DNA of 64,000 nt from a virus (taxonomy: Duplodnaviria; Caudoviricetes). Below, piece after piece: positions 47,087 to 64,000 of the stretch; position 1 is the stretch's first letter; every line of letters starts with the position of its first letter. Under the pieces are notes generated by a model. The model was not told the origin of the DNA, did not search any database, and was given only the letters and a program-made list of their open reading frames with translations. The position numbers and the translations under genes are program-made. The stretch lies in the IMG/VR virus record IMGVR_UViG_3300038443_000257, positions 23,496-87,495 of that record; one strand, given 5' to 3'.

Positions 47087-47087
47087 A

Positions 47088-47585: not shown

Positions 47586-47986
47586 GCCGAGGTATCTCCA
47601 ATGGCCTCGTTAACCTGCTTCTTCAGCCAATCATACTGCGGGTTAGAATAAAGCTTACGGAACGCATCTGCGCTATCCACTGGCTCACCGTCCAGTGTAA
47701 GATTATCAATCTTAACCGAAAGGGCAACCAGAAATTCCACACTCTGTTCACGCATCTCGTCAGGTGTAGCTTCACGCTTGCCGCGCTTAGCAGCCTTCTT
47801 CATCATTGCATCAACAGCTTTACGATAGGCTGCACTCGCTTCGCCTTTTACGGTAACCTGAACAGGTTTCGATTCCGGGTCTTCCCCCTTCTCGACTGGT
47901 GCGAAGATTGGCATATCTGTTTTAGGGTTAATCAGTTGGAACGAGGTTTCGTCTGCAAGGGCCAGCGAGTTAAGTTCAAAAGTCAT
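47570..47986 (-). CDS. tail assembly chaperone (gpG-like)
   Basis: 138 aa between tail tube and tape measure; ends GCT TTT TTG AAA GTC TAA. Confidence 0.85.
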   Translation of the reverse strand: MTFELNSLALADETSFQLINPKTDMPIFAPVEKGEDPESKPVQVTVKGEASAAYRKAVDAMMKKAAKRGKREATPDEMREQSVEFLVALSVKIDNLTLDGEPVDSADAFRKLYSNPQYDWLKKQVNEAIGDTSAFLKV

Positions 47987-48007
47987 GGTAGAGTTCCTTT
48001 AGTTATG

Positions 48008-49204: not shown

Positions 49205-49340
49205 GTGTATCCTCATTCAAATAAGATACACTTAAGGCGGGAATAGGGTATAAGGCCACTATTCCCATAAGTGTTTAAACGTTAAAGGCTCTCGCAAGAA
49301 AGCTCTTAAGGTTTAGAGGGTTTACACCCTCTTACACCAA

Positions 49341-49787
49341 TCAGGTGCCTTCGATCACACTGTTGTCAAGCTCAATGTCTACCGTGGTTTGCAGAATCTG
49401 GTCTGCGTTGCCGACGTTAGTTTGAAGACCTGTAACAATACCTGTAAAGTATGCGCTACCAAGTGTCGCCGGATACGTCACCTTGAACGCATTCGATGTA
49501 CGACCATTAAACGCAGTTTGCAGGGCAGTCATGTCGGTGCCGGTGTGCTTGGCAAGAGTCATGTTAATCGTGCCATAATCGACGCTACCTGCACGCTTAA
49601 TAACAGTCGCAGTGTCCAGCGGAATAAATTTCTGTACGGAAACTTTGCCCCCGAAAACGCCCAGTTGGCTCACCTCTGCGATAGGAATCCAAGTCAAGGC
49701 CGAGAAACCCGTAGAGTCGTATGTCGTAGGCAGCGTTGTCGAGATCGAGATAGTAGTAGTCGCACTTGTAACAACGGTTTGAGTCAT
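49341..49787 (-). CDS. major tail (tube) protein
   Basis: 148 aa Thr-rich; KRAGSVDYG; siphovirus synteny. Confidence 0.8.
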   Translation of the reverse strand: MTQTVVTSATTTISISTTLPTTYDSTGFSALTWIPIAEVSQLGVFGGKVSVQKFIPLDTATVIKRAGSVDYGTINMTLAKHTGTDMTALQTAFNGRTSNAFKVTYPATLGSAYFTGIVTGLQTNVGNADQILQTTVDIELDNSVIEGT

Positions 49788-49849
49788 TTGTATTTCCTTT
49801 AAATTAAATTATCTTTTGCAAAAGATGCTTCATAACCTTGCGGCTATCC

Positions 49850-50257
49850 TTACGAGCTTGATAGCTCTTGTCTATACTGCACCCTCACCACAGCAACTCT
49901 AAAAGCGGCATCCGTCATAGGAGGGCTAATGTTGGCTGGCTGTTCCACACTAAACGTGCTATACTTGGCCTTGTCGTACACAGGAAAGAGTGCTGCAACT
50001 GCGCTTGTAAGCGTATCAAGCTGCTTCATGCCTTTTCCGTCCGGTACACACACCATAACTTGGAACGAGCCATAAACACGCTGTCGCATCGCATCCACAG
50101 TAGCATTTTTAATAGCATTGTTAAGAAACACTACTTGCAAGTACGGCGATCCAACAGGCTTGTTAAACGCTACACCTTCATACGCAACAGAGATTGCAGG
50201 ACTTTGTGCAGCAGCGAAGGCCGCGATAGCTGACTCCACCTCTTGTCTAATGTTCAT
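49850..50257 (-). CDS. tail terminator protein (DUF4128-like)
   Basis: VAYEGVAF.KP...YGSFQV...P.GKG. Confidence 0.75.
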   Translation of the reverse strand: MNIRQEVESAIAAFAAAQSPAISVAYEGVAFNKPVGSPYLQVVFLNNAIKNATVDAMRQRVYGSFQVMVCVPDGKGMKQLDTLTSAVAALFPVYDKAKYSTFSVEQPANISPPMTDAAFRVAVVRVQYRQELSSS

Positions 50258-50697
50258 AGCTCTCCTTTAATCGCTGTGAATGCGCTCTGCACGGGCGCAT
50301 ACACTCTACGCATGCCGGTCCACGTCCAACCGCTGATAGGGTCTTTGCCTGCTTTCCAACCTAGGTATTCCACATTGGCAGCGTAGCTAAGATTGTTAGA
50401 CAGGCTCACAAACCCGTCCTTCTGAAAGAACGCTGTGCTAGGCTTGATAATACTTTCAATTCTTGCTAAGCTGTCGCCGCCATCACTCGTAGCACCTGTG
50501 ATAGATGTGTCGAAGCTATTAACAGCAGGGAACCAGTTGGCAACGAAGTGACCTGCTACATATGGGCCATCACCGACATGAGGGGAATTGTTTACAATGC
50601 GAGTGAACAGGTTGTATGCAACAGCGTTAATCTTGAAGTTAACTTCTGTCTGCACCCGTTGGATGTTCGATCTGAGGGAATCTGCAAAACTTCCCAT
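50254..50697 (-). CDS. tail completion/neck protein (HK97 gp10-like)
   Basis: SP...GHFVANW...LSNNLSYAANVEYLG. Confidence 0.75.
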   Translation of the reverse strand: MGSFADSLRSNIQRVQTEVNFKINAVAYNLFTRIVNNSPHVGDGPYVAGHFVANWFPAVNSFDTSITGATSDGGDSLARIESIIKPSTAFFQKDGFVSLSNNLSYAANVEYLGWKAGKDPISGWTWTGMRRVYAPVQSAFTAIKGEL

Positions 50698-50718
50698 ATA
50701 CCTCCCTTACAGAAAAGA

Positions 50719-50747
50719 ATTATAGCATTGGTGCACTATCTTGTCAA
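50719..50747 (-). promoter_or_regulatory. consensus sigma70 promoter in the structural module
   Basis: Minus strand TTGACA-17-TATAAT with extended -10 TG. Confidence 0.8.
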
Positions 50748-50765
50748 TTTTAATAGCCCAACAGA

Positions 50766-51095
50766 TTATTTTGTGATGTCCTGCTGGTAAACATACGCAC
50801 CTTTACAAAGGGTATGTATGTTTCCATATGTATCTGTCATTTGGATATCATAATAGAAAAACCCCACGCGATCAGCTTGACTGAGTGTAGGAGAAAACTC
50901 CACAACACCGTTGATGGCATCAACAATTGCGCCGTTGATTTGGTACAATTGAGTTGACGTGTCTATTGGATTTTGAGCAGTACTTATAGTAAGTAAGAAA
51001 GAGCATCCAGAAATATTCGTTGCGTCTTGCGTACCAACCGTCGTGATTGTGCAAGTGTCGGGGCGCGTATCCCCCCTAAACCTCATAATTTGCAT
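50766..51095 (-). CDS. BppU-like Ig-fold virion protein
   Basis: RGDT...G.VEF....YYDIQMTD..G...TL..G...DIT. Confidence 0.6.
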   Translation of the reverse strand: MQIMRFRGDTRPDTCTITTVGTQDATNISGCSFLLTISTAQNPIDTSTQLYQINGAIVDAINGVVEFSPTLSQADRVGFFYYDIQMTDTYGNIHTLCKGAYVYQQDITK

Positions 51096-51103
51096 AAGTG
51101 ACC

Positions 51104-52810
51104 TCAGTTAATGTCCGCATGATACTTAACCGTCTGAATGTTGATCAAGTAAGGAGATAGCGTTATGGTGATGTTAAATTTGTCTCCAGAAGCCGTGTAG
51201 TGCAACCCGCCCTCGGTAACTCCGGAAACAGTTGCCTTACCGCCTGAGTTGCCAATAACTGTTGCCACAAACGCTGCAATCGCCTGAACCTGTGCAGCCG
51301 ATACAGAGATGCCACCAGCGCCATAAATGGCAACAGACAGTCCTCCAACGCTGGCGAGCCCCGTTGCCGCACCCGTTGCGCACGCAAGAATTACCCCGCC
51401 AGCGTTCGCTACCGAAGTTCCAAACGAACCTGCATTAGTAGCCATCCGGGCGGCTGCGCTTCCAGTGCTACTAGCTAACCCGGAAGCATTAGCTATCGAG
51501 CTACTTATAGACGCGCCACTTGCGGAAGATGAGGCACTACCAACAGCACTAGCAATGGCGTTATAAAACGCGCTCGCAATAGCTGCTGCATTCGATGTGC
51601 CGATTGCACTTCCATCTGCTGACCCTGACGCTGGAGTTAATGCTGCACCTGTACCAGATACGGATGATGTACCTGCTGATCCCCCAGCCACAGGAAATAG
51701 CGATACGCCGCTTCCTGATCCCACCGCAGTACCTACCGTGTTAGCTTGCACGCTCCAGATCGAGTATGCGTTTCCAGATACCGTTGCAGAACACGAGCTT
51801 GCACCCGTTGTGAGATAGATAGATACACAGTTAGCAGTATTTGAAGTGGTTCCGTATGAGCTTCCACCAGAGTAAAACAAGCTGACAGTAGAGCCTGACA
51901 GCGACCCCGACCCAACAGAACTTCCAGAACTTCCTGCAATTGCCACAGACGCAGCCCCGTTGGTTGCTGCGGCTTGACTGGAGGCGAAGGTGTTAAAAAT
52001 CGCCTGCGCAATTGAGGACAGACTTGATGCTCCAATAGAGCTTCCGTCCGCTGATACGATAGTTGGTCCCGACCCGCCGCTGGCAACTAGAACATCGAGT
52101 GTTTCTTCTTCGTCCGAAGATGTCAGTGCTTGCCACATCGAAGCAGACAGCGCGCGGGCGGATTCCTTGGGAATACCTTTGCTAAACCGTGCATGTGCAA
52201 AGAACGTCGCATTAATCACCCCACCCGTCGCAGTGGCCCCACCGATAAATCCAGTTGGTGTACCGGCAAGTCCGAAGAGGGAGAACGTGCGTGTTACCGA
52301 AAACTTCTCAACACCATCAAGGTATCCACGCCAGTTCGTGCCGTCGTACGTGTAGACGACAACGTGCGGTAGCGTGTCATTGACGACGATGCCGCTGCCC
52401 GTGCGTGGGTCAGTGCCAGTGTATCCCTGAGCGAAAAATTCTACGGTGTTAGCGACGTACCCGTAGATTACGGCCGTTTGGTCGGCACTGGCACCATCCA
52501 TTACAATGTACTTTTGACTCTGCCCGGTCGCATTCAACTGGAACGCAACGGCGACAGTGAATTGGTTTCCTACGCCGATGGTCTTACCCTTGGCGCCCAC
52601 TGTCCACGTGTTGTTACCACCATTCTGAGAAACACCTATACCCTGAGGTGTGACCCGTACGGTGTGGCCCGTACCGGAACGGACAAGTCCAGATGGCCCT
52701 GCGGCCTCAAAATCGGTCGCTTGGAAAACAGTGAAGCTTTCTAGACCAAGATTGCGCCACGCTGGCGAGGCGACAGCACGTCCCTGTGGTTGGTAGCGCA
52801 TCCCCGGCAT
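51104..52810 (-). CDS. LamG/concanavalin-like domain + Ala/Ser/Gly-rich repeat virion protein (fibre candidate)
   Basis: FTVAVAF...PHVVVYTYDGTNWRGYLDG, then long low-complexity A/S/G repeats. Confidence 0.65.
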   Translation of the reverse strand: MPGMRYQPQGRAVASPAWRNLGLESFTVFQATDFEAAGPSGLVRSGTGHTVRVTPQGIGVSQNGGNNTWTVGAKGKTIGVGNQFTVAVAFQLNATGQSQKYIVMDGASADQTAVIYGYVANTVEFFAQGYTGTDPRTGSGIVVNDTLPHVVVYTYDGTNWRGYLDGVEKFSVTRTFSLFGLAGTPTGFIGGATATGGVINATFFAHARFSKGIPKESARALSASMWQALTSSDEEETLDVLVASGGSGPTIVSADGSSIGASSLSSIAQAIFNTFASSQAAATNGAASVAIAGSSGSSVGSGSLSGSTVSLFYSGGSSYGTTSNTANCVSIYLTTGASSCSATVSGNAYSIWSVQANTVGTAVGSGSGVSLFPVAGGSAGTSSVSGTGAALTPASGSADGSAIGTSNAAAIASAFYNAIASAVGSASSSASGASISSSIANASGLASSTGSAAARMATNAGSFGTSVANAGGVILACATGAATGLASVGGLSVAIYGAGGISVSAAQVQAIAAFVATVIGNSGGKATVSGVTEGGLHYTASGDKFNITITLSPYLINIQTVKYHADIN

Positions 52811-52811
52811 G

Positions 52812-53186
52812 TTATACTCCTGTAACAGCTTGCAATGTGGCCTCTACGGTAATAGCATTAGTTATGTTACCATATGCGATAGCTCTAACATACATCACCC
52901 CCCTATCGAGGATAATCGATCCACTGTACGTACTACTTGCAGTAGTATCTCCTCCAACAGAGAAGTAGTCATACCATGTAGTGTTATCTGGAGATACCTG
53001 AAACGTAATCGCTCCGGCTGCAGTTGGAGCCGAGCTTCCGTTCGTGATTCGCCAGTTAAGTTCCCCACCATAGTACGTAGTGCAATCGGTGGCTGTACTA
53101 GTGATGGACGGGGATGTTTTAGTTCCGCCTGCGGTACATGACGTGCCCGCTGCAATAATTGTTTTTAGCGATTTTGTAATGGCCAT
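52812..53186 (-). CDS. virion-associated beta-rich protein
   Basis: 124 aa, QVSPDNTTW...YVRA. Confidence 0.6.
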   Translation of the reverse strand: MAITKSLKTIIAAGTSCTAGGTKTSPSITSTATDCTTYYGGELNWRITNGSSAPTAAGAITFQVSPDNTTWYDYFSVGGDTTASSTYSGSIILDRGVMYVRAIAYGNITNAITVEATLQAVTGV

Positions 53187-53593
53187 TACTTCATACTCCC
53201 GTCAGGATTGAAAAGAATTTCCGCCACTTCTGCCTGTGACACGGGGTCTGGTGTAATGCTCAATGCAATCAGCTTTTCCGCTTGATCTTGCGTCAGAACA
53301 GCAGGCACAAAGCTTTGAAGTGTGTAAATCACCAACGGATCGCTGATAATCAGCCGTCCTTGATCGAGAAGCGGCACTACATATTTGAATCGAGAGTCAT
53401 TGTGCAGAACATCTAGGAGAGTATTAGCTGTTGCCAGATCGTTTAGAACCGAAATAATTGTTCCGTTTCCGATCATAAGATTGCTCGGTTTATTTCGTCC
53501 TGTGCTAACTGCCTCCGCAATTGCATGGCAATCACGGCTGGCAATCAGTTCAGCGGAACACTTTGCAAGAATTTCGTCTTTCGTGATTGCCAT
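53186..53593 (-). CDS. hypothetical protein
   Basis: 135-aa coupled ORF. Confidence 0.65.
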   Translation of the reverse strand: MAITKDEILAKCSAELIASRDCHAIAEAVSTGRNKPSNLMIGNGTIISVLNDLATANTLLDVLHNDSRFKYVVPLLDQGRLIISDPLVIYTLQSFVPAVLTQDQAEKLIALSITPDPVSQAEVAEILFNPDGSMK

Positions 53594-53599
53594 TTTGGA

Positions 53600-54043
53600 T
53601 TAGTCCTCTGTTACCAGGCCCGCAGCCGTAGTGATACGCGGTTGCACTCCGACGTTCATTACGATATTTGGCGACAGCGTACCGCTGTACAGAAGCTTAC
53701 CAGCACCGCTTGACGAGGTTCCGACACCGAAGTGGGTAAGGTTTCCGCCCGGAGATGCTGTGCATTGTCCGAAGTCGCCATTAGCCGTTAGGTTCACAGA
53801 GTTACCTGTCACCGTAAAGCCAGCAGATGAGCGGGCGACAGCGATACGAGCATAGCCGGTGTATGCAGTTTCATTAGTAGCCTGCGTGCCAGTTTCGCCC
53901 GGATCGGCTGTGTGTAGCGACAGGTACAGGCTTCCAGTTGTGCCGCTAGGGAGAAGCCCTGTAGCATCACCAATAAGAGACGTACCTACGTTATTAAAAA
54001 CCAGCTTAAGCAGGTCGTTTTCCCATGTATCGGATTTACTCAT
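53600..54043 (-). CDS. virion structural protein (fibre-associated)
   Basis: LYLSLHTADPGETG...YTGYAR...THFG. Confidence 0.7.
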   Translation of the reverse strand: MSKSDTWENDLLKLVFNNVGTSLIGDATGLLPSGTTGSLYLSLHTADPGETGTQATNETAYTGYARIAVARSSAGFTVTGNSVNLTANGDFGQCTASPGGNLTHFGVGTSSSGAGKLLYSGTLSPNIVMNVGVQPRITTAAGLVTED

Positions 54044-54052
54044 TTCTATTCC

Positions 54053-54448
54053 TTATTCACGAATGTAAAGTTCAAACAACACGCATCCGTCGTTAGACAT
54101 CGAAGGATTAAGTTGTTTGATTGTAATAATCTTGTAAACTTTTCCGTCCACTTTCAAATAATCTTTGTTAGGGGAAAAGTGAGGCAGAGGCAACCCGTCT
54201 TGTGTTTTTTGCGGCGGTTGGATGTAAACTTGTTTGTCGCCAGTTTTTATAAGAGTGCTATTTTCGGTCCCTTCACCCTCATTCTTGCGTACATAATCAA
54301 AAAACATTGCTTTCACAGGGATGTCTTTGAAGGACACAATGTTTTCCGAAGTATCTGTGTTGTACGACTCTGTAAGAGATACCATTACATGCGCTGTGGT
54401 GCCGAACTTAGCCATCATTGACGCTACTGTGCGGTCGAAGGAATTCAT
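54053..54448 (-). CDS. head closure protein
   Basis: 131 aa; IKTGDK; DYLKVDGKVYKI; synteny. Confidence 0.7.
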   Translation of the reverse strand: MNSFDRTVASMMAKFGTTAHVMVSLTESYNTDTSENIVSFKDIPVKAMFFDYVRKNEGEGTENSTLIKTGDKQVYIQPPQKTQDGLPLPHFSPNKDYLKVDGKVYKIITIKQLNPSMSNDGCVLFELYIRE

Positions 54449-54906
54449 TACTGCGGCTCCACGCCACCGTTAGCAACAGGGCCGCTGTATGGATCAAAGG
54501 GACCGGCAGCAATTTGATGCAAACGTTCGTCAGATGTCGGGCGATTCTGTGCGTTAGTGAAGTCCTCTTTGAATTGCAAAATAGGATGGACTTCGTCTGC
54601 ACCTGCAACATAGGGCAATGGGCAAACGCCGTTGAAAGCGGGGTCTCTTAGGACTAAAAGCAGATAGTCTTTGTACTGGTTGTAGACCTGACTCCCATAA
54701 GATGTAATAATACCCATCTTAGCGTCAGAGTCGAAACTGAGTGTAGCAAGGATATATTGCCCACACAGAGCACGTGCAGCTTTAAAATTGTTGTTGTACT
54801 TGTCAAGGGCACTTTGGTAGATGTCATCGTTCAATACGGGCAAATCCCTCCAATCGCCGAGTGCCAACCTAAGTTGTCCTATTAGTGTGGACGGATCAAT
54901 TAACAT
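54448..54906 (-). CDS. head-tail adaptor protein
   Basis: LRLALGD...LNDD; position after the capsid gene. Confidence 0.7.
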   Translation of the reverse strand: MLIDPSTLIGQLRLALGDWRDLPVLNDDIYQSALDKYNNNFKAARALCGQYILATLSFDSDAKMGIITSYGSQVYNQYKDYLLLVLRDPAFNGVCPLPYVAGADEVHPILQFKEDFTNAQNRPTSDERLHQIAAGPFDPYSGPVANGGVEPQ

Positions 54907-55829
54907 AGTTCTTCCTCAATAAGTTCTCTAACACGATTAATTATTCCTTCTCTATCCACACCGTAGAAGCATTCCGTGCTTCCGTCAAACTTCACAGTTA
55001 AAGAGTTGTAATGTTCACACATCTCCTCTAAAATAACTCTTTCAAGAGTCTGCGCCATACAACCTTGTTCAAACCGCCAATACAATACCAGTTCAAAATG
55101 CAAACCTGCTGATTTAGATATTTCAGAAATCCTAGTAATAACATCCCTATTTGTGATTCCAATTTTAGTGATGTCGTCACAACAAGAAATATAAAGATAC
55201 CCTGCCTTATTCGGGTTGTATCCACAAGATATACAGGATGGACAACCAGAACCACTATAGTGATTGTATGGCACTTGCCAAAATAGGCCGTGTTCTTTGC
55301 ACTCAATCTTTATAGGCACTTCGCAGCCTTTATAGATAGCGTGGTCGTAGTTATACTTTTCCCCGTGAATCTGTGCTGCACGCATTTTAAAATGCTCTAA
55401 ATCTGCTGTCCGCATCTTTGACATCAAATCATCCGCACACTTCCTACAGCCTTTACCAGATAAGTGGCAATTTGGTGTCATACTGAACTTACCATGTTGC
55501 TTACAAATTATGTCTACTTTGACAGAAGATTTCTCATATTCCACCACAGAGTAGTCAAACCTATCTCCGTGCAAAGAAACTGCCTTGCGGATAAAAGCTT
55601 CGGTGTTACTTCTGCTGCCCTTACCGATGGATTCGTCTGCGCATTTCCTGCAACCACAACCTTTTAAAAGATTGCCCGGAAGTACCCACGACACACCATG
55701 CTTCTTACAGGAGACTTCTACCTTGACGGAAGAACCCTTGTAGTCTATCCTTGACAAATCCCATACAGGATTTACCTTTTGACGGAGTTTGATTAAAAAC
55801 TCTTCCGGTGTACTGTAACGCCTTCCCAT
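54900..55829 (-). CDS. putative homing endonuclease (DUF723-like Zn repeats + GIY-YIG-like domain)
   Basis: Three Zn repeats then GYNPNKAGYLY...KIGIT; AAGGAG RBS before ATG 55829. Confidence 0.75.
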   Translation of the reverse strand: MGRRYSTPEEFLIKLRQKVNPVWDLSRIDYKGSSVKVEVSCKKHGVSWVLPGNLLKGCGCRKCADESIGKGSRSNTEAFIRKAVSLHGDRFDYSVVEYEKSSVKVDIICKQHGKFSMTPNCHLSGKGCRKCADDLMSKMRTADLEHFKMRAAQIHGEKYNYDHAIYKGCEVPIKIECKEHGLFWQVPYNHYSGSGCPSCISCGYNPNKAGYLYISCCDDITKIGITNRDVITRISEISKSAGLHFELVLYWRFEQGCMAQTLERVILEEMCEHYNSLTVKFDGSTECFYGVDREGIINRVRELIEEELC

Positions 55830-55861
55830 AAATCTCCTTAACATAAGAACCTCAACGTTTT

Positions 55862-55890
55862 ATTATCTCACGAGAAGTTCTTACAGTCAA
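55862..55890 (-). promoter_or_regulatory. sigma70-like promoter after the capsid terminator
   Basis: Minus strand TTGACT-17-GATAAT. Confidence 0.55.
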
Positions 55891-55896
55891 GAGACT

Positions 55897-55916
55897 AAAG
55901 CCCTCCGAAGAGGGCT
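55897..55916 (-). terminator. terminator after the major capsid gene
   Basis: AGCCCTC-TTCG-GAGGGCT-TT. Confidence 0.75.
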
Positions 55917-55921
55917 AATAT

Positions 55922-56974
55922 TTAGTTACTCGACGTCAATTTGATAATGGATGCGGGCCTTGTGGTAAAGTACAATGGCGCTGCCTCCATTTCGAACTCA
56001 ACAAATTCGTCGCGAACGTCGATGTACTGACGCACGAAGATTTCCTGACCGGGCTGGTTGGCCTCGGAGAGTTTAGCCGAAGGACCAGCATAACCACGGA
56101 ACAGGTCGCGCACACCTTCAGCAAAAGCGATACCGCTGTTGTCAGCGAATGCTTGCTCAGTAGTGCCACCCGGCAGGTTGAACGTTGCGTCATACGACAC
56201 AAACTTAATACCGCGCAGAGCGAATGCATCCATGATGCCCCACTGCATGTACGACGTATTGTCATCACGCAGGACCGTGTTGCCAGCGCCGTTAGCCATG
56301 TAGAACTGGTAAGCAGCTTTGACGTTCGGGTGCGAAATCAGCTTGTCGTAGAACAGCGGATCAACCAGAACTTGAATGCCCGAAATTGCGCCACCATTCA
56401 TAACGTTGGTCGAAACAGCCTTCTTCAGTTGACGGATAACCGAATCAACGTTAGTGGACGATGTGCCGAGCAGGAAATCCTGCGTAACTTGCGAAATACC
56501 GAATTCGCTGTACATGTCAGCAACAACCGTGCCGTCCGGGGTTTTCATAGCACCCTTCAGGGCTTGCAGCTTCATGTACTCTTGTGTTTGGTCCCAAGCA
56601 CGGCGCATGTCCGTCATTTTCTCTGCCGTAGCGCGACCGTACGTTTCCGAGTCGGTCGAGCCAGGAACGCGCCAGCCTTGGATGTCTTCGTTCGTCAGGC
56701 GGTCTTCGTGTTTGAAGTAAGCCAGTTTCAGGGCGAACGTGTCAGCTTTGCGCTCGTGGCCTTCCGTCGAAGCCTTGGCACCACGATTCACTTGCGGCAG
56801 CAGCGTAACGTTTGCATAGTCTTTGTCGAAGACGATAGCGGTTTGGTTGGTCGATTTGACCGAGAACAGATTTTGGCTGTTGATGTAGCCATACTGAATG
56901 GGGACTTGCGAAATCGAGTCAACGAAGTCAGCGTTCTTGAAGCTGTTGAAATAGTCGCGAATAGTCATGCTCAT
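55922..56974 (-). CDS. major capsid protein (lambda gpE-like family)
   Basis: 350 aa; EDIQGWR, TQEYMKLQALKG, FYDKLISHP; strongly biased codons; synteny. Confidence 0.9.
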   Translation of the reverse strand: MSMTIRDYFNSFKNADFVDSISQVPIQYGYINSQNLFSVKSTNQTAIVFDKDYANVTLLPQVNRGAKASTEGHERKADTFALKLAYFKHEDRLTNEDIQGWRVPGSTDSETYGRATAEKMTDMRRAWDQTQEYMKLQALKGAMKTPDGTVVADMYSEFGISQVTQDFLLGTSSTNVDSVIRQLKKAVSTNVMNGGAISGIQVLVDPLFYDKLISHPNVKAAYQFYMANGAGNTVLRDDNTSYMQWGIMDAFALRGIKFVSYDATFNLPGGTTEQAFADNSGIAFAEGVRDLFRGYAGPSAKLSEANQPGQEIFVRQYIDVRDEFVEFEMEAAPLYFTTRPASIIKLTSSN

Positions 56975-57010
56975 TTGAGAGTTCCTTTAATTATTAGACG
57001 CCGGGTTGGC

Positions 57011-57406
57011 TTAGACGCCGGTACGGACGTGGATGTTTTTAGCGCGCAGAGCGTTTGCAACGATGGTCTTGTTGCCCGAAGTGACGACATCTTTGTACAG
57101 CAGACCAGCATCAACAACACCAGCGTGACCAGTGCGCAGCACCGTCAGCGTGTAATCGCCGGGGGTAAGCGACGGGACATCCAGATTCGATTCGATCAGC
57201 ACAACCACATCAGCGTTCAGCGTTGCAACGTCAGCGTTAGCGACCCATTTGTATTTGCTCGTGCCGTCATATTGCAGGACAGCGCCGACATCCATACCAG
57301 CAGCAACCGTAACGGTCACAGCACGACGGCAGACGCCATGTTCCGGCATTTCTTCAAAAGCGAGAACGCCCGACAGTTTATTGCTACGAGTAGCGAGTTT
57401 AGTCAT
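57011..57406 (-). CDS. head decoration protein
   Basis: 131 aa directly upstream of the capsid gene; VGAVL. Confidence 0.75.
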   Translation of the reverse strand: MTKLATRSNKLSGVLAFEEMPEHGVCRRAVTVTVAAGMDVGAVLQYDGTSKYKWVANADVATLNADVVVLIESNLDVPSLTPGDYTLTVLRTGHAGVVDAGLLYKDVVTSGNKTIVANALRAKNIHVRTGV

Positions 57407-57969
57407 TATTTCGATTCCTTCTTGGTGGATTTCTTAGGGAGATATTGATTAAAATGTTCAACCTTCGGCTCGTCTTTGGCGTCTGCCTTGGTTTCTACGC
57501 CGACTTCATTGAACATCTCGCTTTTTGCCTCGGCAGCAGCATTAGTAGCGAAAATTTGCAGGAACGATTCGACTTTAGCGTCGTCCATACCTTCAGTTGC
57601 AGCCATAAAAGCAGCAGCTTTTTCAGTGCCCATTTGAGCTTCAACTTCTTTACGGCGGGCTTCCAGTTTTGCAGCCAGCGCATCAGCTTTAGCTTGTTCT
57701 TCGGCAGCGGCATAAGCCGACAGCTTTTCTTCGTACTCAGCTTTCATAGCTTCAGCAGCAGCCTTAACCGATTCCATTTCGGCAGTCAGGGCAGACAGTT
57801 GAGCCAGAACGGCTTCGTGCGCAGCAAGCTCGATAGTTTGAGCTTTATCTTCTACACTCATCGTTTCTTCCTTTTCTTGTTCAGGCAAATCGCCTGTAGT
57901 TACGACTTCTTCCGAAGCCTCCGGGGTTACAGGCGTTGCGCCCAACTTCTTTTTGAGAAAATCCAGCAT
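57406..57969 (-). CDS. capsid scaffolding protein
   Basis: Ala/Glu-rich coiled coil between protease and decoration genes. Confidence 0.75.
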   Translation of the reverse strand: MLDFLKKKLGATPVTPEASEEVVTTGDLPEQEKEETMSVEDKAQTIELAAHEAVLAQLSALTAEMESVKAAAEAMKAEYEEKLSAYAAAEEQAKADALAAKLEARRKEVEAQMGTEKAAAFMAATEGMDDAKVESFLQIFATNAAAEAKSEMFNEVGVETKADAKDEPKVEHFNQYLPKKSTKKESK

Positions 57970-57978
57970 AGTTATCCT

Positions 57979-58803
57979 TTAACTGAGCACGTAATCTACG
58001 AACTCGGAACGAGTCATAATTTTGTTGACCAAACCAATTGACAGAGCGTCTTGAGCGGAGTACACTCGTGCTTGTGTGTCCTTGAGGTCTTTTGTGGACA
58101 AGCCCGTGTAATTAGAGACGTGAGCACGGAATGCATCACCAAGCTCGGCAACACGCTTCTGCATGTCTTCAAGGAAGCCATCTCGCCACGAACCATCGTC
58201 TGCGAAAGGAACTTTGTCGCTGCCATCTGTAACGAATGTACGTTGAATGCCAGCTTGTTCAAGCTTCTTACTATCGTTGTAAAGGCAAATCAAGACTCCG
58301 ATAGAGCCCACGTCAGCGTAAGGGTTGGCAATCACTTCGTCGCAAGAACACGCAATAGCATAAGCAGCAGAACATGCTGAACCGTCAACGTAGCTAACGA
58401 GGCGAACACCAGCGGCATCACACATTTTGCGAAGTTCGTCAACTGATTCAAAACAGCCGTAAGCCTCGCCACCACCTGAATCAATGTCAAGAACAAGAGT
58501 TTTCGCTTTAGCTGCAATAAGTTCCTCAGCTTGATCCAGAAGCATTTCGTAGGAAAAACCTCCGCACATACCCTCCCAACCTGTGGAACGGTATGTAAGA
58601 GGTCCACGAATAGTAATCACTCCAATATCGCCAGCAACAGGCACATCTTTTTTATTTTCTGTGCTCTTACTGCCTTCGATATCGATCATGCCGGCGTTAC
58701 GAGCGTCAAGATAAGCCTCAACTTCTTGAAAGGCTGTTTTAGAAATTAGATGCGGGCGGTTTCGCAGGGAAGCGGTAAGCCGCAAAAGTTTGTGTTTATT
58801 CAT
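57979..58803 (-). CDS. prohead maturation protease, S49 family
   Basis: LDIDSGGG, ACSAAYAIA, VGSIGV. Confidence 0.9.
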   Translation of the reverse strand: MNKHKLLRLTASLRNRPHLISKTAFQEVEAYLDARNAGMIDIEGSKSTENKKDVPVAGDIGVITIRGPLTYRSTGWEGMCGGFSYEMLLDQAEELIAAKAKTLVLDIDSGGGEAYGCFESVDELRKMCDAAGVRLVSYVDGSACSAAYAIACSCDEVIANPYADVGSIGVLICLYNDSKKLEQAGIQRTFVTDGSDKVPFADDGSWRDGFLEDMQKRVAELGDAFRAHVSNYTGLSTKDLKDTQARVYSAQDALSIGLVNKIMTRSEFVDYVLS

Positions 58804-59542
58804 GCATTTGCTCCGTCAAGTATCGCTCCTTAAACTGGAGCCACGCAGGGTCTTCTTTTGGAATCCAACCAGATTTGAACTTATCTTTCATTTTCCAAGG
58901 GTTGCAGTTTAAGAAACCAAGCATTTCCGCAAGACTCCTTGCCGCTGCTTTAGGATGCTCCAAATGTTTCTCATAAAAAAGGTCTGCAACTGCCCACAAA
59001 TCTTTTCTAGCGGCGCTGTTTTCCCAAAGATTTCTCCCTGTCATGGCGAGTGCAAACTTCCTCTTAGATTCTTCACTCTTTACTCGCCCCGTGGCCTTTT
59101 GTCGAATCTTGTTTCGTGACTCTTCAGATAAGGGTCGCCCCTTCGACGCAGCGGACATCCTCTTACGGGTTTCTTCAGATATTTGTTTACCCTTGTGGGC
59201 CTTAGACATTTTTAGCTTAGAAGCTTCAGAATGACCCCTCCCGGAGAGGGGAGGTATCAACCCTCCGGGAGCCAAGTTCCATGCGACCTCAGCGACGGGT
59301 CGCAATTCAGACTCTACGAAATAGCAAAACTCCTCATCACCTTTCGCTATGACTGTTCTGAGGATATCGTCACCGTATTTCCGCATAGCCCGGTGCACCA
59401 AATACTCAGAACCACTCCTTACACTGTAGTCGTGCACAGTCATTCTTCGGTCAAAGTTGTTTGTAACACCAACGTAACCTTCAGACTTAATATCGGTATG
59501 ATTTTTATGTCTAATCCAATATACTACGTGGTCTTCAATCAA
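58796..59542 (-). CDS. GIY-YIG homing endonuclease with NUMOD3 repeats
   Basis: VYWI...GYVGVT...R...E...WNLAPGG; HSEASKLKMSKAHKG-type repeats. Confidence 0.85.
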   Translation of the reverse strand: MIEDHVVYWIRHKNHTDIKSEGYVGVTNNFDRRMTVHDYSVRSGSEYLVHRAMRKYGDDILRTVIAKGDEEFCYFVESELRPVAEVAWNLAPGGLIPPLSGRGHSEASKLKMSKAHKGKQISEETRKRMSAASKGRPLSEESRNKIRQKATGRVKSEESKRKFALAMTGRNLWENSAARKDLWAVADLFYEKHLEHPKAAARSLAEMLGFLNCNPWKMKDKFKSGWIPKEDPAWLQFKERYLTEQMHE

Positions 59543-61023
59543 GCTGAATTCTCCGAATTTTGCGAACTTGAATCTTTTTTAGTGGGTTTTGTTGCTGTTC
59601 CGTCGTAAGGAGTTTGCATCCCCTCTCCAGAATTACTGGATTCCATTGTAAACTCCACAGACTCTAAATCAGTGTCAGGTGGAAGTGTACTAACGCCGAT
59701 TGCGCGGAGAAGCCTGTTAACAACGTCTACATTCTTAGGAATAAGACCGATCGATCCAGTTCTCTGCATAAGTTTTCCTAATTCATCAGCGCTCATCTCG
59801 GAAATATCTCCGGGGATGAATTTAGGCAACCGTTCTATTTTCCACGAATTGAGTTTGTAGAGTTGCGGAACTAGATCATTGTTCAAGACATCAGCAATCT
59901 CATTGAGCCGGTGCCCCATCGCAAGAGACACAACATTTGTATCCGAATCAGCAAGGCTAAAAGAGCCAACTTCGCTACCACCCTTAAGAATATCAATTCC
60001 AAGTGCAGAATAAACTTCATCTGCGTAGCGACGAATAGCTTGATCGATGTTAGCACCGGGTATACCCTTCTTCTCCAGTAACTCAATCGAGAATCTATCC
60101 TGTTTGGTTTGTTCATCTACAAGCTTAGGGAAGATGATTCCGCGATTTGTACCTGCCTGCATGGTGTCAAGCAGTTTTTGGCAAGCTTGATATACTGCCT
60201 TCATATCATCGGGTGCATCAGCAGCCATGTACTCAGGTGGAAGTTTAATCAATGGAAGTCCAGCAGATTCTTTAGCAATGCCAAGAAGCTCCTGTGAACG
60301 GAGCATGTCAAGCTGTTTGTAAGCTTTGTACACACCTTTAAGAATAGAGTTGCCTGTAGGATCACCCTTAGTAGGGTCTGCACGGAAAAGCAAGAATTTA
60401 TCTCGCTTAATAGGAATAAGACCGTGCTCATTGGCTTGATCCATGAACATTGCTGCGTGTTCAAGCTTATAGATGGATTGTTCACAACCCAGCAGATCAC
60501 GACCATCTTCAGAGAACGTCCAACGTGCAATAGTGTCTTGTGAGCGCGGAGTGAGCTTGCGGATTCCAACTTTACCGTCGTTAAATTTGCTACCGTTCTT
60601 ATAGAGGCGGCGGCGGTAGACCTTCTCCTGTACAGAGAATCCGTAGGGAAGATATGTAACTACATCGGACATGAACTCTGCCCACGAGCCTTCCATGTCG
60701 TCCATGCACGACTGAACAAATTTAGCACGCTCTTTTTCTTCTTCTGTGGCGTCTACAGGTGGAACTACGGTCCAATTGACACGGGACAGCAGCATCCGAT
60801 AAGTGTTCATTGCAGATGCAATAACTGCATCATTGAGCATTTCTTTGACCGTGATAACAAAGTTATCAAGATGAAATGCCCTGTTCGGATCGTCAATAAC
60901 TTTCCCAAAAATTGTGCGAAGGCCGATAAAGCCTGTTTCCCCTAACTGAATACGGGGCACTGCAACACCATCGTCAGCCGCCAGAGCAGCCGTATTATCT
61001 TGTGGCTTCTTTTTAGCGGCCAT
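59539..61023 (-). CDS. portal protein
   Basis: 494 aa after TerL; YGFSVQEKVY, PTGNSIL, GSFSLA (DUF935-like). Confidence 0.88.
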   Translation of the reverse strand: MAAKKKPQDNTAALAADDGVAVPRIQLGETGFIGLRTIFGKVIDDPNRAFHLDNFVITVKEMLNDAVIASAMNTYRMLLSRVNWTVVPPVDATEEEKERAKFVQSCMDDMEGSWAEFMSDVVTYLPYGFSVQEKVYRRRLYKNGSKFNDGKVGIRKLTPRSQDTIARWTFSEDGRDLLGCEQSIYKLEHAAMFMDQANEHGLIPIKRDKFLLFRADPTKGDPTGNSILKGVYKAYKQLDMLRSQELLGIAKESAGLPLIKLPPEYMAADAPDDMKAVYQACQKLLDTMQAGTNRGIIFPKLVDEQTKQDRFSIELLEKKGIPGANIDQAIRRYADEVYSALGIDILKGGSEVGSFSLADSDTNVVSLAMGHRLNEIADVLNNDLVPQLYKLNSWKIERLPKFIPGDISEMSADELGKLMQRTGSIGLIPKNVDVVNRLLRAIGVSTLPPDTDLESVEFTMESSNSGEGMQTPYDGTATKPTKKDSSSQNSENSA

Positions 61024-61050
61024 TATTGCTCCTTTTCTTTACTGAAACGA

Positions 61051-61079
61051 ATTGTACCATTGCAAGTAAGTCTTGTCAA
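61051..61079 (-). promoter_or_regulatory. promoter upstream of the portal gene
   Basis: Minus strand TTGACA-17-TACAAT with extended -10 TG. Confidence 0.75.
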
Positions 61080-61089
61080 ATTTGTGCTA

Positions 61090-62520
61090 CTACACCGATG
61101 GAATTGGGGATGGCTGAGTATTTACGGACAGAGTAAACGACGGAATAGTGATCTGCTTCATAACAGCCTTACACGCCGTAGCCGTGCTATCCCACATGTC
61201 GTCCTTCTGATTCCTATTGCCGTCAATATAATCTTCTAGCTCGTTGAACCACATTTCATTCCACTCGCCCCTTACCACCCGGACAAGCCCCGCCTCCGCA
61301 AGAGACAAGAATGGTTGCATACGAGACAGCTTGCCAGTGTGTCCTGAAACCATCTCTGTGCGAGCGTCTACACCATTCTCTACAAGCGTCTTAATGAAGA
61401 ACATATTTGCTGCCGCTCCGCCAGCGCCGGGGTCTTTCGGAATAAACACAGGAACTTGTTGCCCTAGCTCGTCGCGATCCTTGATAGCACACTTGGCAAT
61501 CTCTTCAAGAACCCCGTGCGTCAGCTTTCTATATCGCTCAACATGTTCGACGTAATAGAAACCATCTTTTCCTTTAGAAATGCGGGTAGATGCCGTCCAG
61601 TCGGGATTGGGGTTACTTTCTGACTTGAGTGTACTCGCTAAGTCCATCCCCCTCGCACGATTACTAACTAGTGCAGGAACTTTATCAACAATCTCACACC
61701 AATCTCGTTTAAAATACCCTGACGACTCTTCCTTGGCAAACCACGAGCCAAGCAGCAGACGTTCACGCTCAACACGCTTAAGGTTCTCAAGACGGGCCAC
61801 GTATCCGGGGTTGAGCACCTTCATCCTTGGGTTGTCCCGAATAGTGGCGCTGATGAACGTATAGCTCTGTGGCCGTACTCCGGGATATGTCTCAATCAGT
61901 TCTTCTTTTGTATCAGCAAACACCATCGTCCCGTTGTACGAAGCGTAATACCGCTCAACACCTGAACGCTCAGGAATGGGAATACCTGTGTCTTGATCCA
62001 AATACCAGTTCACAAAAGGCATAAGATGGCTGTCGCGACGTGGGTTGCAAGTGCAACATAGTTGGTGCGGGCCTTGAGCTTGTGAGCGAATACGCGACTC
62101 CAAATATCTAATTTGAACATCGGTATGATTCTGCGCTTCGTCAAATACGACAAGGGAAAACTGTCCACCGTCAAAGTTTGTAATATCTCTGTCTGCACCG
62201 CAGACTTTAAACTGCACTTGTGCACCTGATGGGAAAGTTGCTGTCATCTGAGGGTGCGTCTTGAACTTAGCGCCAAATTGGCGCCACATCTTTTCTGCTT
62301 CTTGATACAGGCCACCGGCTTGCGAAAGCTGGGTACTTGTCTCTCGAATGAAAACACCCCTAAAATTGGGGTCATCTTTATATTTAAGAACTTTGAGGAG
62401 GGCTTGGTGAGATTTGCCACAACCGGCACCCCCACCAAAAATAATATAGTCACTTGTACAGTCAAGGAATTTTTTGTGGGTGATAGAGTCCGGCCCCCAC
62501 ACTGTTTTTTGTTTTTTCAA
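61090..62520 (-). CDS. terL: terminase large subunit
   Basis: Walker A GGGAGCGKS, Walker B VFDE, TCNP, DLA, PDWT, KDDMWD. Confidence 0.93.
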   Translation of the reverse strand: MKKQKTVWGPDSITHKKFLDCTSDYIIFGGGAGCGKSHQALLKVLKYKDDPNFRGVFIRETSTQLSQAGGLYQEAEKMWRQFGAKFKTHPQMTATFPSGAQVQFKVCGADRDITNFDGGQFSLVVFDEAQNHTDVQIRYLESRIRSQAQGPHQLCCTCNPRRDSHLMPFVNWYLDQDTGIPIPERSGVERYYASYNGTMVFADTKEELIETYPGVRPQSYTFISATIRDNPRMKVLNPGYVARLENLKRVERERLLLGSWFAKEESSGYFKRDWCEIVDKVPALVSNRARGMDLASTLKSESNPNPDWTASTRISKGKDGFYYVEHVERYRKLTHGVLEEIAKCAIKDRDELGQQVPVFIPKDPGAGGAAANMFFIKTLVENGVDARTEMVSGHTGKLSRMQPFLSLAEAGLVRVVRGEWNEMWFNELEDYIDGNRNQKDDMWDSTATACKAVMKQITIPSFTLSVNTQPSPIPSV

Positions 62521-63134
62521 TCTGTTATCTCCACTTCATAATTAATCAAAGCGAAATAAAGATCATCAGAAATCTTCCCGCGAAATTTGTTAGCTTCGTA
62601 AGAAATCAACTCTTCTTTCTTTTTCTTGTAAGCTTGAAACGCTTCGATTGGTGTGTCATAAACCCCAATGTGGCCTTTGCCAAAGCTGTCTCTAGCACGC
62701 ACATTTCCGACCCGAGCCACATATTTTTTAATTTTCTTAAAATATTGCACACCAATCGGCAAGTCGCCACGGGAAGCGTTAGATTTTGCAAGAAGCATGT
62801 TGATGCTGTTAGGGACAAATCTGCAAGTATCTTCAGAGTAGACTTTGTTATTCTTAATCAGTATGTCTTTCTCAAGTTGGTATCCCGTCTCACCAAACCC
62901 AATTTGTTTATTGCACCACTTCGCAAACCACTGGAAATTCTTAAAGTTCTCCGACACAGAGCAACCTTTATAGCGTGGTCGCAACTTGTTCATCGCTGGC
63001 GAGTAGCAGCGTGCAAGCATGTTCTTCCAAAGTTCATATTCTGGCGTCTTACGGTTCTTTCCGTCTTCACCTTTACAAGAGCGTTTATATTCACCGTCTT
63101 CGCTTACACCAACTCCATAAACTAATTTAATCAT
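62517..63134 (-). CDS. HNH-like homing endonuclease family protein (LEKD variant) with AP2-like domain
   Basis: WKNMLARC...FKNFQWFAKWC..QIG..YQLEKD..YSEDTCRFVP..IN; LPIGV. Confidence 0.75.
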   Translation of the reverse strand: MIKLVYGVGVSEDGEYKRSCKGEDGKNRKTPEYELWKNMLARCYSPAMNKLRPRYKGCSVSENFKNFQWFAKWCNKQIGFGETGYQLEKDILIKNNKVYSEDTCRFVPNSINMLLAKSNASRGDLPIGVQYFKKIKKYVARVGNVRARDSFGKGHIGVYDTPIEAFQAYKKKKEELISYEANKFRGKISDDLYFALINYEVEITD

Positions 63135-63224
63135 TTTATCTCCGTAATAGATTAATAGATGTGACTATCTGAGATTACGGCTCAGAGAGGGAGCTACCCG
63201 ATTCGCCACAAAACTTGAAACAAC

Positions 63225-63256
63225 AAAAAGCCACACAGCATTCCTGCCGTGCAGCC
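63225..63256 (-). terminator. intrinsic terminator
   Basis: Minus strand GGCTGCACGGCA-GGAA-TGCTGTGTGGCT-TTTT. Confidence 0.65.
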
Positions 63257-63312
63257 TCCTTTAGAATATTGACTAGCCGCTGCCTAGTCTGCCTATACTT
63301 AGTCTTTACAAC

Positions 63313-63497
63313 TTGGCCTAGACAGGCGCTTACGCGGTGTGCCCTATATTTAATGAGCGCGCACATCACAAACGCTCTTATTCGGTGTCGCAGCGCCACT
63401 CAACCATGCCTGCGAGCTTTAGTGACCTTGATGCCACCCTCTCCACTAATCCGCTTTCGCGGAGTATGCCCAATCGGAGCGAAGTCCCTCTAGGCAA
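63313..63497 (-). ncRNA. candidate multibranched structured non-coding RNA
   Basis: Closing helix GCCTAGA/TCTAGGC encloses hairpins TCCGC-GAAA-GCGGA, GTGGC/GTCAC, TCGCAG/CTGCGA, GAGCG/CGCTC, GCG-TAAG-CGC; no credible ORF. Confidence 0.5.
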
Positions 63498-63533
63498 ATT
63501 TGTTACGAGTATTAGTTGGTTTCCCAACCGATG

Positions 63534-63836
63534 TCAGCCCTCGTCGGCTTTCGTGACCTCGACAGTAATCCTGCAACCAGATTCTTTTCTAATTACATTA
63601 CCTTCTGCATCAATCGACACAGTTGACCAATCTCCACCGATAGTCCCAACTGTCAAGACACCTACCTTACTACCAACAGACGACAAACTTTCAACCTGTA
63701 GGACTTCTGGCTTCGCTTCCTCTTTCTTACCGAAGATTGCATCGAAATTATCGTAATAATTCTTCCAACCAGTGCCACGGGGCCGAGACCCCTTACCAGC
63801 ATCTGCATGAAATGTTTTCGTATTGTTATCAGACAT
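63534..63836 (-). CDS. hypothetical phage protein
   Basis: AGKGSRPR...YYDNFDAIF; AAGGAG RBS. Confidence 0.7.
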   Translation of the reverse strand: MSDNNTKTFHADAGKGSRPRGTGWKNYYDNFDAIFGKKEEAKPEVLQVESLSSVGSKVGVLTVGTIGGDWSTVSIDAEGNVIRKESGCRITVEVTKADEG

Positions 63837-63848
63837 ACATCTCCTTTA

Positions 63849-64000
63849 TTACAAATACAATCCGCCTGTCCCGGTGTCTGTATATCCTGCTGCGTTACCC
63901 GGCATAATTGTATTAGCTGCACCGTAAGATTGGACCATCCCGCCAGCGTAGACATAATAACGTGTGCCAACTGAACCTGTTGTCGTGAATGTGGTGTTGT
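63849..64000 (-). CDS. C-terminus of a tailspike/beta-helix-like protein, 5' end truncated by window edge
   Basis: Hand translation ...GSVGTRYYVYAGGMVQSYGAANTIMPGNAAGYTDTGTGGLYL*. Confidence 0.55.
   Translation of the reverse strand, partial: NTTFTTTGSVGTRYYVYAGGMVQSYGAANTIMPGNAAGYTDTGTGGLYL

Follow-up and report, generated by a model that had tools for sequence, protein, structure and literature searches.

A structured RNA family outside Rfam upstream of the large terminase gene in uncultured phages

Introduction

Few structured non-coding RNAs of virulent phages are understood. In lambda, the late leader is a 6S RNA that starts at pR′, ends at tR′ and is read through in the presence of Q. 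Other described RNAs come from tRNA regions. The rnaC and rnaD of T4 (species 1 and 2 stable RNAs) are late RNAs; the tRNA cluster that encodes them also contains segB, a homing endonuclease gene, and they are described as having no known function (PMC9697503); RNAs of the T4 tRNA cluster were described in the 1970s (PMC4933390). Phage PAK_P3 (Nankokuvirus) makes two abundant late small RNAs, sRNA1 and sRNA2, from the tRNA region preceding its large terminase gene, TerL (PMC4933390). Among the cis-acting processive antiterminator RNAs, HK022 put consists of two stem-loops and measures about 70 nt (PMC9378689). On a larger scale, a survey of IMG/VR reported 8495 csRNAs from DNA-virus contigs, 14 of them consistently upstream of a putative large terminase, and its account of these 14 gives neither function nor structure (Fremin et al., 2023; PMC10690425). 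The present work concerns a structured RNA encoded on the minus strand of the IMG/VR phage record IMGVR_UViG_3300038443_000257, in a non-coding gap directly upstream of an endonuclease gene and the large terminase gene. The stretch analysed, hereafter the window, comprises 64,000 nt and forms the last 64 kb of this 87,495-bp record. The conserved RNA is very probably both the last part of a tRNA operon and the leader of the large-terminase gene.

Evidence for a conserved RNA

The gap measures 399 nt (63135-63533, minus strand) and extends from the stop codon of a small open reading frame (ORF) of 100 amino acids to the start of an HNH ORF of 205 amino acids, beyond which the large terminase gene and the portal gene (59539-61023) follow. 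A preliminary description of the window, made from the sequence alone, had noticed a gene-free interval of about 400 nt upstream of the endonuclease and terminase genes, and this is indeed what the gap is. It had also proposed that the gap holds a structured phage RNA on the minus strand that belongs to no described family. The comparison with Rfam and the collection of homologues with a covariation analysis, both suggested with that proposal, have now been carried out and speak for it. Folded as minus-strand RNA, the gap reaches a minimum free energy of -142.1 kcal/mol (z = -4.44), a value that none of 100 shuffled sequences attains; on the plus strand z is -1.20 and 11 of 100 shuffles fold as well, so that folding is strand-specific. 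G-U pairs are numerous in the helices.

The gap sequence is conserved upstream of the terminase in ten sequences (blastn, MAFFT), and a covariance model, R1, was built from these ten (164 positions, 31 pairs). On the structure-blind MAFFT alignment, RNAalifold finds six helices with compensatory changes in 14 of the 31 pairs. A covariation test was run in an 18-sequence version and then with 28 distinct sequences from 35 loci. In the latter model-fitted alignment, 97.6% of 785 cells hold standard pairs, against 76.0% in shuffles, and both sides have changed in 25 of the 31 pairs; none of the observed measures was reached in any of 500 shuffles. When the 3′ partners are slid by 1-3 columns as a control, pairing falls to 29-47%. 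A scan of all column pairs for pseudoknots gave no run of consecutive covarying pairs beyond the six helices. A 3-bp contact between GGU in the P4 loop and an A-Y-Y in the 3′ tail is possible and fits most sequences, with one-sided changes only.

The RNA matches none of the 4227 families of Rfam. At the gathering score of Rfam 15 the whole window gives no match, and at E ≤ 10 the region 62900-63800 yields only snoR130 (17.3 bits, E = 3.2), outside the element. Among nine relatives, Rfam detects tRNAs and group I introns only, none of them at the RNA. ARAGORN finds no tRNA or tmRNA gene in the window, nor is there an Intron_gpI match in it; the same model detects introns in the TerL genes of seven of the nine relatives. 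No description of the RNA turned up in the literature, the csRNA models of PMC10690425 and the sRNA table of PMC4933390 lying outside the comparison; the RNA may already be among the 14 terminase-associated csRNAs that the former source counts. Judged by its comparative record, it is a real RNA family outside Rfam, with a small universal core and a fixed genomic place.

Architecture of the RNA

The alignments describe the fold as a row of local hairpins, P0-P4 (Table 1), not as a closed multibranched domain. The latter had been the preliminary picture, in which a long-range helix between GCCTAGA (63495-63489) and TCTAGGC (63322-63316) enclosed the hairpins. Both strands lie at these coordinates; the helix between them did not withstand comparison. 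GCCTAGA pairs locally with TTGGGC in P1, with compensatory changes in relatives, TCTAGGC sits in a 112-nt insert, and complementarity between the two strands is lost in L009, a locus that carries the insert. The individual hairpins fared better: TCCGC-GAAA-GCGGA is P2, GGTTGG-GAAA-CCAAC is P0a, GACTAG/CTAGTC is P8, and the intrinsic terminator expected after the RNA is present with 16 pairs and a T-run. The interval proposed for the whole, 63270-63530, misses the limits of the RNA, since P0 starts at 63544 inside the upstream ORF and the terminator ends at 63225.

In the window the whole element consists of P0-P4 (63544-63387), a four-hairpin insert and the terminator, about 330 nt in all. Common to all clades are P3-P4 and purine-rich linkers only, some 70 nt. 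P3, which the distant clade has too, is paired in 100% of cells with compensatory changes in five of its six pairs, while P4 is paired in 99.5% of cells with such changes in seven of eight pairs, and its loop is the most conserved stretch across clades. In P0, 8 of 24 sequences have replaced A-U by U-A, a compensatory change first visible in the structure-blind alignment. One change here alters a Glu codon of the small ORF to a Val codon and is matched by a change in the 3′ strand of the helix, which indicates that RNA pairing constrains the end of the ORF.

Of the 30 loci in which a terminator was detected, 8 carry the 112-nt insert. An alignment of four sequences shows compensatory changes within the insert itself, and no second copy of it occurs in the window or the collected loci. 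The terminator carries AAAGGAGG in its 5′ arm and an ATG in its loop, and the sequence of its stem varies between clades yet remains paired. No other terminator-like site within 40 kb comes close to 63260-63225 in strength.

The distant clade (L017-L021, L047) retains the GG-N-GAG linker, P3 and P4 only, about 70 nt. Just 5′ of the core, a long branched hairpin is seen in this clade (L017 3820-3900; also L018, L019, L020, L021) and in L016, with an outer stem AACGGCTCT/AGAGCCGTT and three CU-rich unpaired stretches (TTCTCC-like) that are complementary to the purine-rich linker of the core. This hairpin may serve as a weak terminator, or belong to the RNA as a 5′ domain.

Homologues and their distribution

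Candidate loci came from a terminase-based scan of IMG/VR (22 loci), a terminase-alignment scan (three more) and a metagenome scan (11 loci). R1 matches at E ≤ 0.01 in 35 of the 40 loci searched, which amount to 28 distinct sequences from related uncultured phage contigs, and its matches in more distant loci are weaker and shorter. Nine of the 11 metagenome loci were searched with R1, with matches in L045 and L047; the remaining two lie on contigs equal in length to those of L010 and L018. A DNA-pattern scan independent of the terminase returned 25 stretches, 16 of them from new contigs, and 15 of these 16 match R1 at 50-175 bits.

Other loci with a terminase relative mark the edges of this distribution. 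L016 gives no significant match and shows a P4-like hairpin only; L021 falls below the threshold (E = 0.026); L035 and L037 give partial matches only (E = 0.12-0.48). No significant match is found in L049-L055, whose terminases are 35-44% identical. L010, L015 and L022 offer at most 14 nt of upstream sequence and are uninformative on the presence of the RNA. GenBank phages contain no DNA match to the 399-nt gap, cultured phages have no TerL more than 60% identical to either terminase type, and R1 finds nothing upstream of TerL in phages PS24 and EM. A core pattern of the main clade has no match in 185,579 bacterial and archaeal genomes, a pattern so narrow that this result does not show absence.

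Gene order around the RNA

Where upstream sequence is present, gene predictions and motif matches outline a usual unit of sigma70-like promoter, tRNAs, small ORF, RNA, terminator, optional endonuclease and terminase. Same-strand tRNA genes were found upstream in 13 of 18 loci scanned, in L041 at 33 nt, and one more was identified through Rfam in L017. The genome of the window has only two tRNAs by ARAGORN, tRNA-Thr (TGT) and tRNA-Ser (GCT), at contig 123-304 (minus), which is the opposite contig end. In L065 that end is collinear with the window end, save for a short variable stretch at the junction. As the tRNA end is collinear with the RNA end in relatives, the linear contig resembles a nearly closed circle cut within the operon.

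These tRNAs are preceded, at a distance of about 200 nt, by an 11/12 sigma70-type site (contig 534, minus). Comparable sites precede the RNA in all 18 loci, before the tRNAs where these are found; as consensus matches with no shuffle control, they are putative promoters. No promoter was recognised next to the RNA itself. The box AATWCWCGTA occurs once without mismatch and, at 17 occurrences with one mismatch against 13.2 expected, is not enriched, and a TATTAA-like late promoter is not enriched either (5 against 3.1 and 7 against 7.2 expected). A CTGACA-18-AATACT site at 63537-63508 was rejected as a promoter, being disrupted in relatives without the P0a hairpin. Promoter-like sites in 44001-64000 number 37, against 23.7 ± 4.8 in shuffles. 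Near-perfect sigma70-type sites with an extended TG are present in the structural region at 50747-50719 (minus, 12/12) and at 61079-61051 (minus, 11/12), the latter exactly where the terminase and portal genes meet.

In the small ORF, about 44 amino acids at the N-terminus are conserved (GKGSRPR...W..Y..NFD.IFGKK) and the C-terminus is variable. It belongs to no Pfam or PHROG family, and its 19 homologues are all hypothetical proteins of the same phage group. Since the product is basic and encoded directly 5′ of the RNA, an RNA-binding role is conceivable.

Downstream, a terminase homologue follows on the same strand in 34 of 35 loci, the exception being L061, with 1.4 kb of downstream sequence only. 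The distance from RNA to terminase is 8-180 nt in 11 of these loci, which leaves no room for an endonuclease gene, 850-1603 nt in 22, consistent with an inserted endonuclease gene (ORFs were inspected in four loci), and 4400 nt in L077. In L077, a 12,506-bp contig with a GC content of 37% at the RNA, the RNA (50 bits) has its own terminator and heads two unknown ORFs, the portal, the major head protein and, 4.4 kb downstream, a terminase homologue. Part of this homologue lies at each end of the contig, as would be expected of an assembly that is circular or repeated.

The HNH endonuclease of the window is missing in L002, L003, L004 and others. The genes found at the junction belong to PHROG 953 in the window, PHROG 374 in L009 (3244-3978) and PHROG 681/559 in L041 (2042-2998). 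Because these families differ, the HNH gene of the window is one of several mobile insertions, and the RNA-terminase junction has, from its gene content, the character of a homing endonuclease hotspot. A conserved, hairpin-containing leader of about 100 nt recurs before the endonuclease genes of different loci; in the window its hairpin occupies 63187-63168. In L006, L013 and L075 the endonuclease cassette has its own promoter-like site, a 12/12 match to TTGACA-17-TATAAT, 3′ of the terminator.

A strict script detects a terminator after the RNA in 30 of 35 loci, and L041 has one with a long loop by eye. In L017, L018, L019 and L047 no terminator follows the core, which runs into the terminase ribosome-binding site or the endonuclease leader. 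The core of L017 and L018 stops 8 nt short of the terminase start, no terminator intervening, and must therefore be 5′ untranslated region in these two loci. In L002, L003, L004, L056 and L063 the 58-65 nt from the end of the RNA to TerL include a terminator and no promoter-like site. The terminator ends about 20 nt before the terminase start in endonuclease-free genomes. The AUG in the terminator loop opens an upstream ORF (uORF) of 13-14 codons (MLCGFLLF...) whose UGA overlaps the terminase AUG (AUGA) in five of eight endonuclease-free main-clade loci (L002, L003, L004, L063, L067), with two terminase types among them. Of the other three, L056 has a uORF that runs in frame into the terminase, the uORF of L070 stops early, and L045 lacks the AUG. 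In the window, the ORF that begins at the terminator-loop AUG has 15 codons and stops short of the HNH gene.

The terminase of the window is 41% identical to the TerL of Nankokuvirus and related Pseudomonas phages (PAK_P3-like), the closest named terminases. Behind the RNA, terminases are at least 84% identical to that of the window in 15 loci and 62-69% in 10, while a second type occurs in three loci and a third, 41-45% identical to the second, in five. Terminases that share only 35-45% identity with each other thus stand behind nearly identical RNAs (106-175 bits). In collinear genomes that differ in this way (L056, L063, L067, L068, L069, L070, L074, L078), the portal and upstream genes share 70-88% nucleotide identity. 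These comparisons indicate replacement of the terminase gene, with at least three lineages now represented behind the RNA, while the genomes are otherwise collinear. A group I intron (Intron_gpI, 74-91 bits) interrupts the terminase of seven of nine relatives about 86 nt into the gene, before the Walker A-like GAGCGKS motif; the gene of the window has none. The terminase of L047 has an in-frame insertion of about 230 amino acids at the intron site, without a Pfam match and suspected to be an intein.

Table 1. Features of the RNA and of neighbouring genes. Positions refer to the window, except for introns, where they refer to the locus named.
Feature	Position	Strand	Remarks
P0 helix	63505..63544	-	ACGAG (63544-63540) / CTCGT (63509-63505); encloses the stop codon of the small ORF
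P0a hairpin, optional, within the P0 loop	63529-63515	-	GGTTGGGAAACCAAC; missing from most relatives
Single-stranded linker	63496..63504	-	AACAAATTT; sequence conservation
P1 with inner helix P1a	63467..63496	-	TGCCTA/TGGGCA and GGA/TCC; compensatory changes in all five P1 pairs
P2, GNRA-capped hairpin	63449..63464	-	CTCCGC-GAAA-GCGGA; compensatory changes in all five pairs
Purine-rich linker	63439..63449	-	TTAGTGGAGAG; GG-N-GAG part kept in all clades
P3 hairpin, universal core	63421..63438	-	6 bp, 6-nt loop; near-invariant G-U closing pair
P4 hairpin, universal core	63387..63416	-	8 bp, one bulge; 11-nt loop ATGGTTGAGTG at 63407-63397
Conserved 3′ tail	63380..63387	-	CACCGAAT; sequence conservation
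Optional 112-nt insert	63267..63379	-	P5 63365-63338, P6 63336-63327, P7 63324-63290, P8 63289-63271
Intrinsic terminator	63217..63260	-	Hairpin 63260-63225; 16-pair stem rich in G-U, then T-run TTTTTGTTGTTT
Small ORF, 100 amino acids	63534..63836	-	19 homologues; last codons form the P0 5′ strand; stop codon 63536-63534 in the P0 loop
HNH homing endonuclease, AP2-like domain	62517..63134	-	PHROG 953, E = 2e-66; mobile insertion
Large terminase subunit, downstream of the RNA	61090..62520	-	Pfam Terminase_6N and Terminase_6C
Group I intron in TerL, L006	4061-4270		Rfam Intron_gpI
Group I intron in TerL, L011	4049-4266		Rfam Intron_gpI
Group I intron in TerL, L013	1535-1752		Rfam Intron_gpI
Group I intron in TerL, L014	2841-3057		Rfam Intron_gpI
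Group I intron in TerL, L017	4068-4269		Rfam Intron_gpI
Group I intron in TerL, L019	4088-4352		Rfam Intron_gpI
Group I intron in TerL, L045	1087-1331		Rfam Intron_gpI

Relation to described RNAs

The RNA belongs among the phage leader or tRNA-operon RNAs. Like T4 rnaC and rnaD, it is a small structured RNA at the 3′ end of a tRNA cluster; unlike it, the T4 RNAs are not beside the terminase, and the best R1 score in the T4 tRNA region is 6.3 bits, in an alignment that skips P3-P4. The PAK_P3 sRNAs, about 83 and 134 nt long, share its position in a tRNA region before TerL, whereas the best R1 score there is 7.2 bits, elsewhere in the region, and the structure of these RNAs is not described as conserved. 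Phage EM has a tRNA 59 nt before TerL.

By size and shape only, the universal core of two stem-loops in about 70 nt is like HK022 put, and like put and Tn916 canT the RNA stands at an operon head, ahead of a terminator. However, R1 run on the whole HK022 genome with filters off scores 7.6 bits at best (E = 0.43), and put lies just downstream of early promoters, whereas the RNA here comes after tRNA genes. With the lambda late leader it shares the form of a short transcript that terminates immediately before the late genes, whose expression would depend on read-through. The lambda leader differs in having a promoter of its own and in depending on Q protein at a DNA site, while here no promoter was found adjoining the RNA.

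Possible functions

The reading favoured here, tentatively and with somewhat less than even confidence, is that of a leader, placed last in the tRNA operon and acting in cis, which would set the passage of transcription and translation through the terminator into the terminase gene. Transcription would start at the sigma70-like promoter upstream of the tRNA genes, pass the tRNAs and the small ORF and then the RNA, and most polymerases would halt at the terminator. The terminase would be made only from read-through transcripts that carry the RNA; endonuclease-free genomes, with no promoter-like site and only about 20 nt between terminator and terminase start, suggest as much. The P3-P4 core would act in cis, by modifying the transcribing polymerase or by binding a factor, and would thereby set or time the fraction of transcripts that enter the head and packaging genes. 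The terminator hairpin may also limit translation, as it holds a Shine-Dalgarno sequence and the AUG of the short uORF whose end overlaps the terminase AUG. Covariation in P4 is independent of the terminator, and the 112-nt insert can lie between the two, which fits action at a distance and not a hairpin switch.

A more specific proposal goes beyond this leader role and must be called unlikely, if worth stating: the P3-P4 core may represent a new class of cis-acting RNA that works on the transcribing RNA polymerase or on a bound factor and gates the passage from a strongly expressed tRNA operon, through a terminator, to the terminase and head genes without a hairpin switch, as an antiterminator of the put/canT kind unrelated to these in sequence, and so times packaging. 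T-box and RNase P RNAs read the 3′ ends of tRNAs. By analogy, a bolder variant would have the invariant GGU of the P4 loop read the 3′ ends of the co-transcribed tRNAs.

Several observations weigh against control by a cis-acting leader. No alternative antiterminator pairing between P4 and the terminator was found in a non-exhaustive inspection by eye and by column scan, and R1 has no similarity to put. The late region shows no excess of terminators (22 against 19.5 and 14 against 18.5 expected), and with few strong ones there is no call for processive antitermination. Late genes have sigma70-like promoters of their own, such as 61079-61051 before the portal gene, and in the three loci with a perfect sigma70-type promoter on the endonuclease cassette past the terminator the terminase could be transcribed without the RNA. 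The comparative basis has its own leanings, as the covariation alignments A3 and A5 were fitted to the covariance model and so lean towards it, and most homologues are close relatives (effective sequence number of the seed alignment, 1.68). Finally, the terminator, the tRNA-operon setting and the ornate modular hairpins suit a stable trans-acting RNA equally well.

Such a stable small RNA, cut from the tRNA operon transcript, is the main rival reading, at about one chance among three. Through its P3-P4 core it would target a conserved factor of host or phage, such as the ribosome, and the terminator would merely throttle the terminase; the 5′ end would arise by tRNA-processing or RNase E-type cleavage and the 3′ end at the terminator. 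This accords with the same-strand tRNAs upstream, some only tens of nt away, the near-consensus sigma70 site before them and the strong terminator in most loci, as well as with the conservation of the RNA independently of terminase type. T4 rnaC/rnaD and PAK_P3 sRNA1/2 are experimental precedents in position, and the tRNA of EM shows that stable RNAs abutting TerL are normal in the group. It fits poorly with L017, L018, L019 and L047, where the core has no terminator and continues into a ribosome-binding site or endonuclease leader, and there is neither homology to the T4 or PAK_P3 RNAs nor an identifiable target or partner. A processing element, whether self-cleaving ribozyme or nuclease entry site, that separates the tRNA and small-ORF transcript from the terminase mRNA would explain the compact conserved core with its invariant unpaired purines, the conserved A/U-rich single-stranded linker after P0 and the location between stable-RNA genes and mRNA. 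With no Rfam ribozyme match even at E ≤ 10 and no recognisable catalytic core, it is improbable. A metabolite- or ion-sensing riboswitch controlling the terminator, although suggested by the succession of aptamer-like conserved core, intrinsic terminator and gene, is more improbable still: P4 covaries while the terminator sequence is fixed, the 112-nt insert separates the two in eight loci, the distant clade lacks a terminator after the core, five loci lack a script-detected terminator (L041 having a terminator-like hairpin by eye), and no Rfam riboswitch matches.

The remaining readings are tied to neighbouring genes or deny the RNA altogether. Its position directly upstream of the terminase gene recalls packaging-associated RNAs such as phi29 pRNA, or a DNA-level packaging signal. 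Yet there is no Rfam match of any kind, in a library that presumably includes the phi29 pRNA family. The RNA is also unchanged where the terminase has been swapped for types 35-45% identical, and this constancy argues against a specific terminase partnership, as the G-U-rich, strand-specific helices argue against a double-stranded DNA signal; either version has a slender chance, below that of the riboswitch. The preliminary description had entertained a partner RNA of the adjacent HNH protein, and adjacency in the window does favour a guide or partner RNA (HEARO- or omega-RNA-like) or a part of a mobile endonuclease cassette. The distribution across loci contradicts it: 11 of 34 have no room for a nuclease, different PHROG families occupy the junction in others, and the RNA lies upstream of the terminator with the endonuclease downstream, so that this reading has almost nothing left to recommend it. 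As little probability attaches to a fold by chance or to a coding function. The gap in the window is overlapped by three ORFs, two on the minus strand (49 and 74 amino acids) and one on the plus strand (139 amino acids), but none matches Pfam. Coding is unlikely because, among the 24 full-length homologues, 15 are interrupted by stops in every frame of both strands, and none of the frames stays open throughout the set. The lengths of the element modulo 3 spread over all residues (11, 7 and 6), and the covariation fits RNA pairing.

Significance

Thousands of comparable candidate RNAs have already been catalogued. This one has unusually clean comparative support and a place fixed at the boundary between tRNA operon and packaging genes, where it is retained although the terminase gene behind it has been exchanged, interrupted by introns and set apart by inserted homing endonuclease genes. 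Control of read-through would make it a new RNA-based switch that governs terminase dosage; as a stable RNA, it would offer a tractable relative, by position, of the T4 and PAK_P3 RNAs. Either way, it marks a recombination hotspot that can help in understanding the modular exchange of packaging genes.

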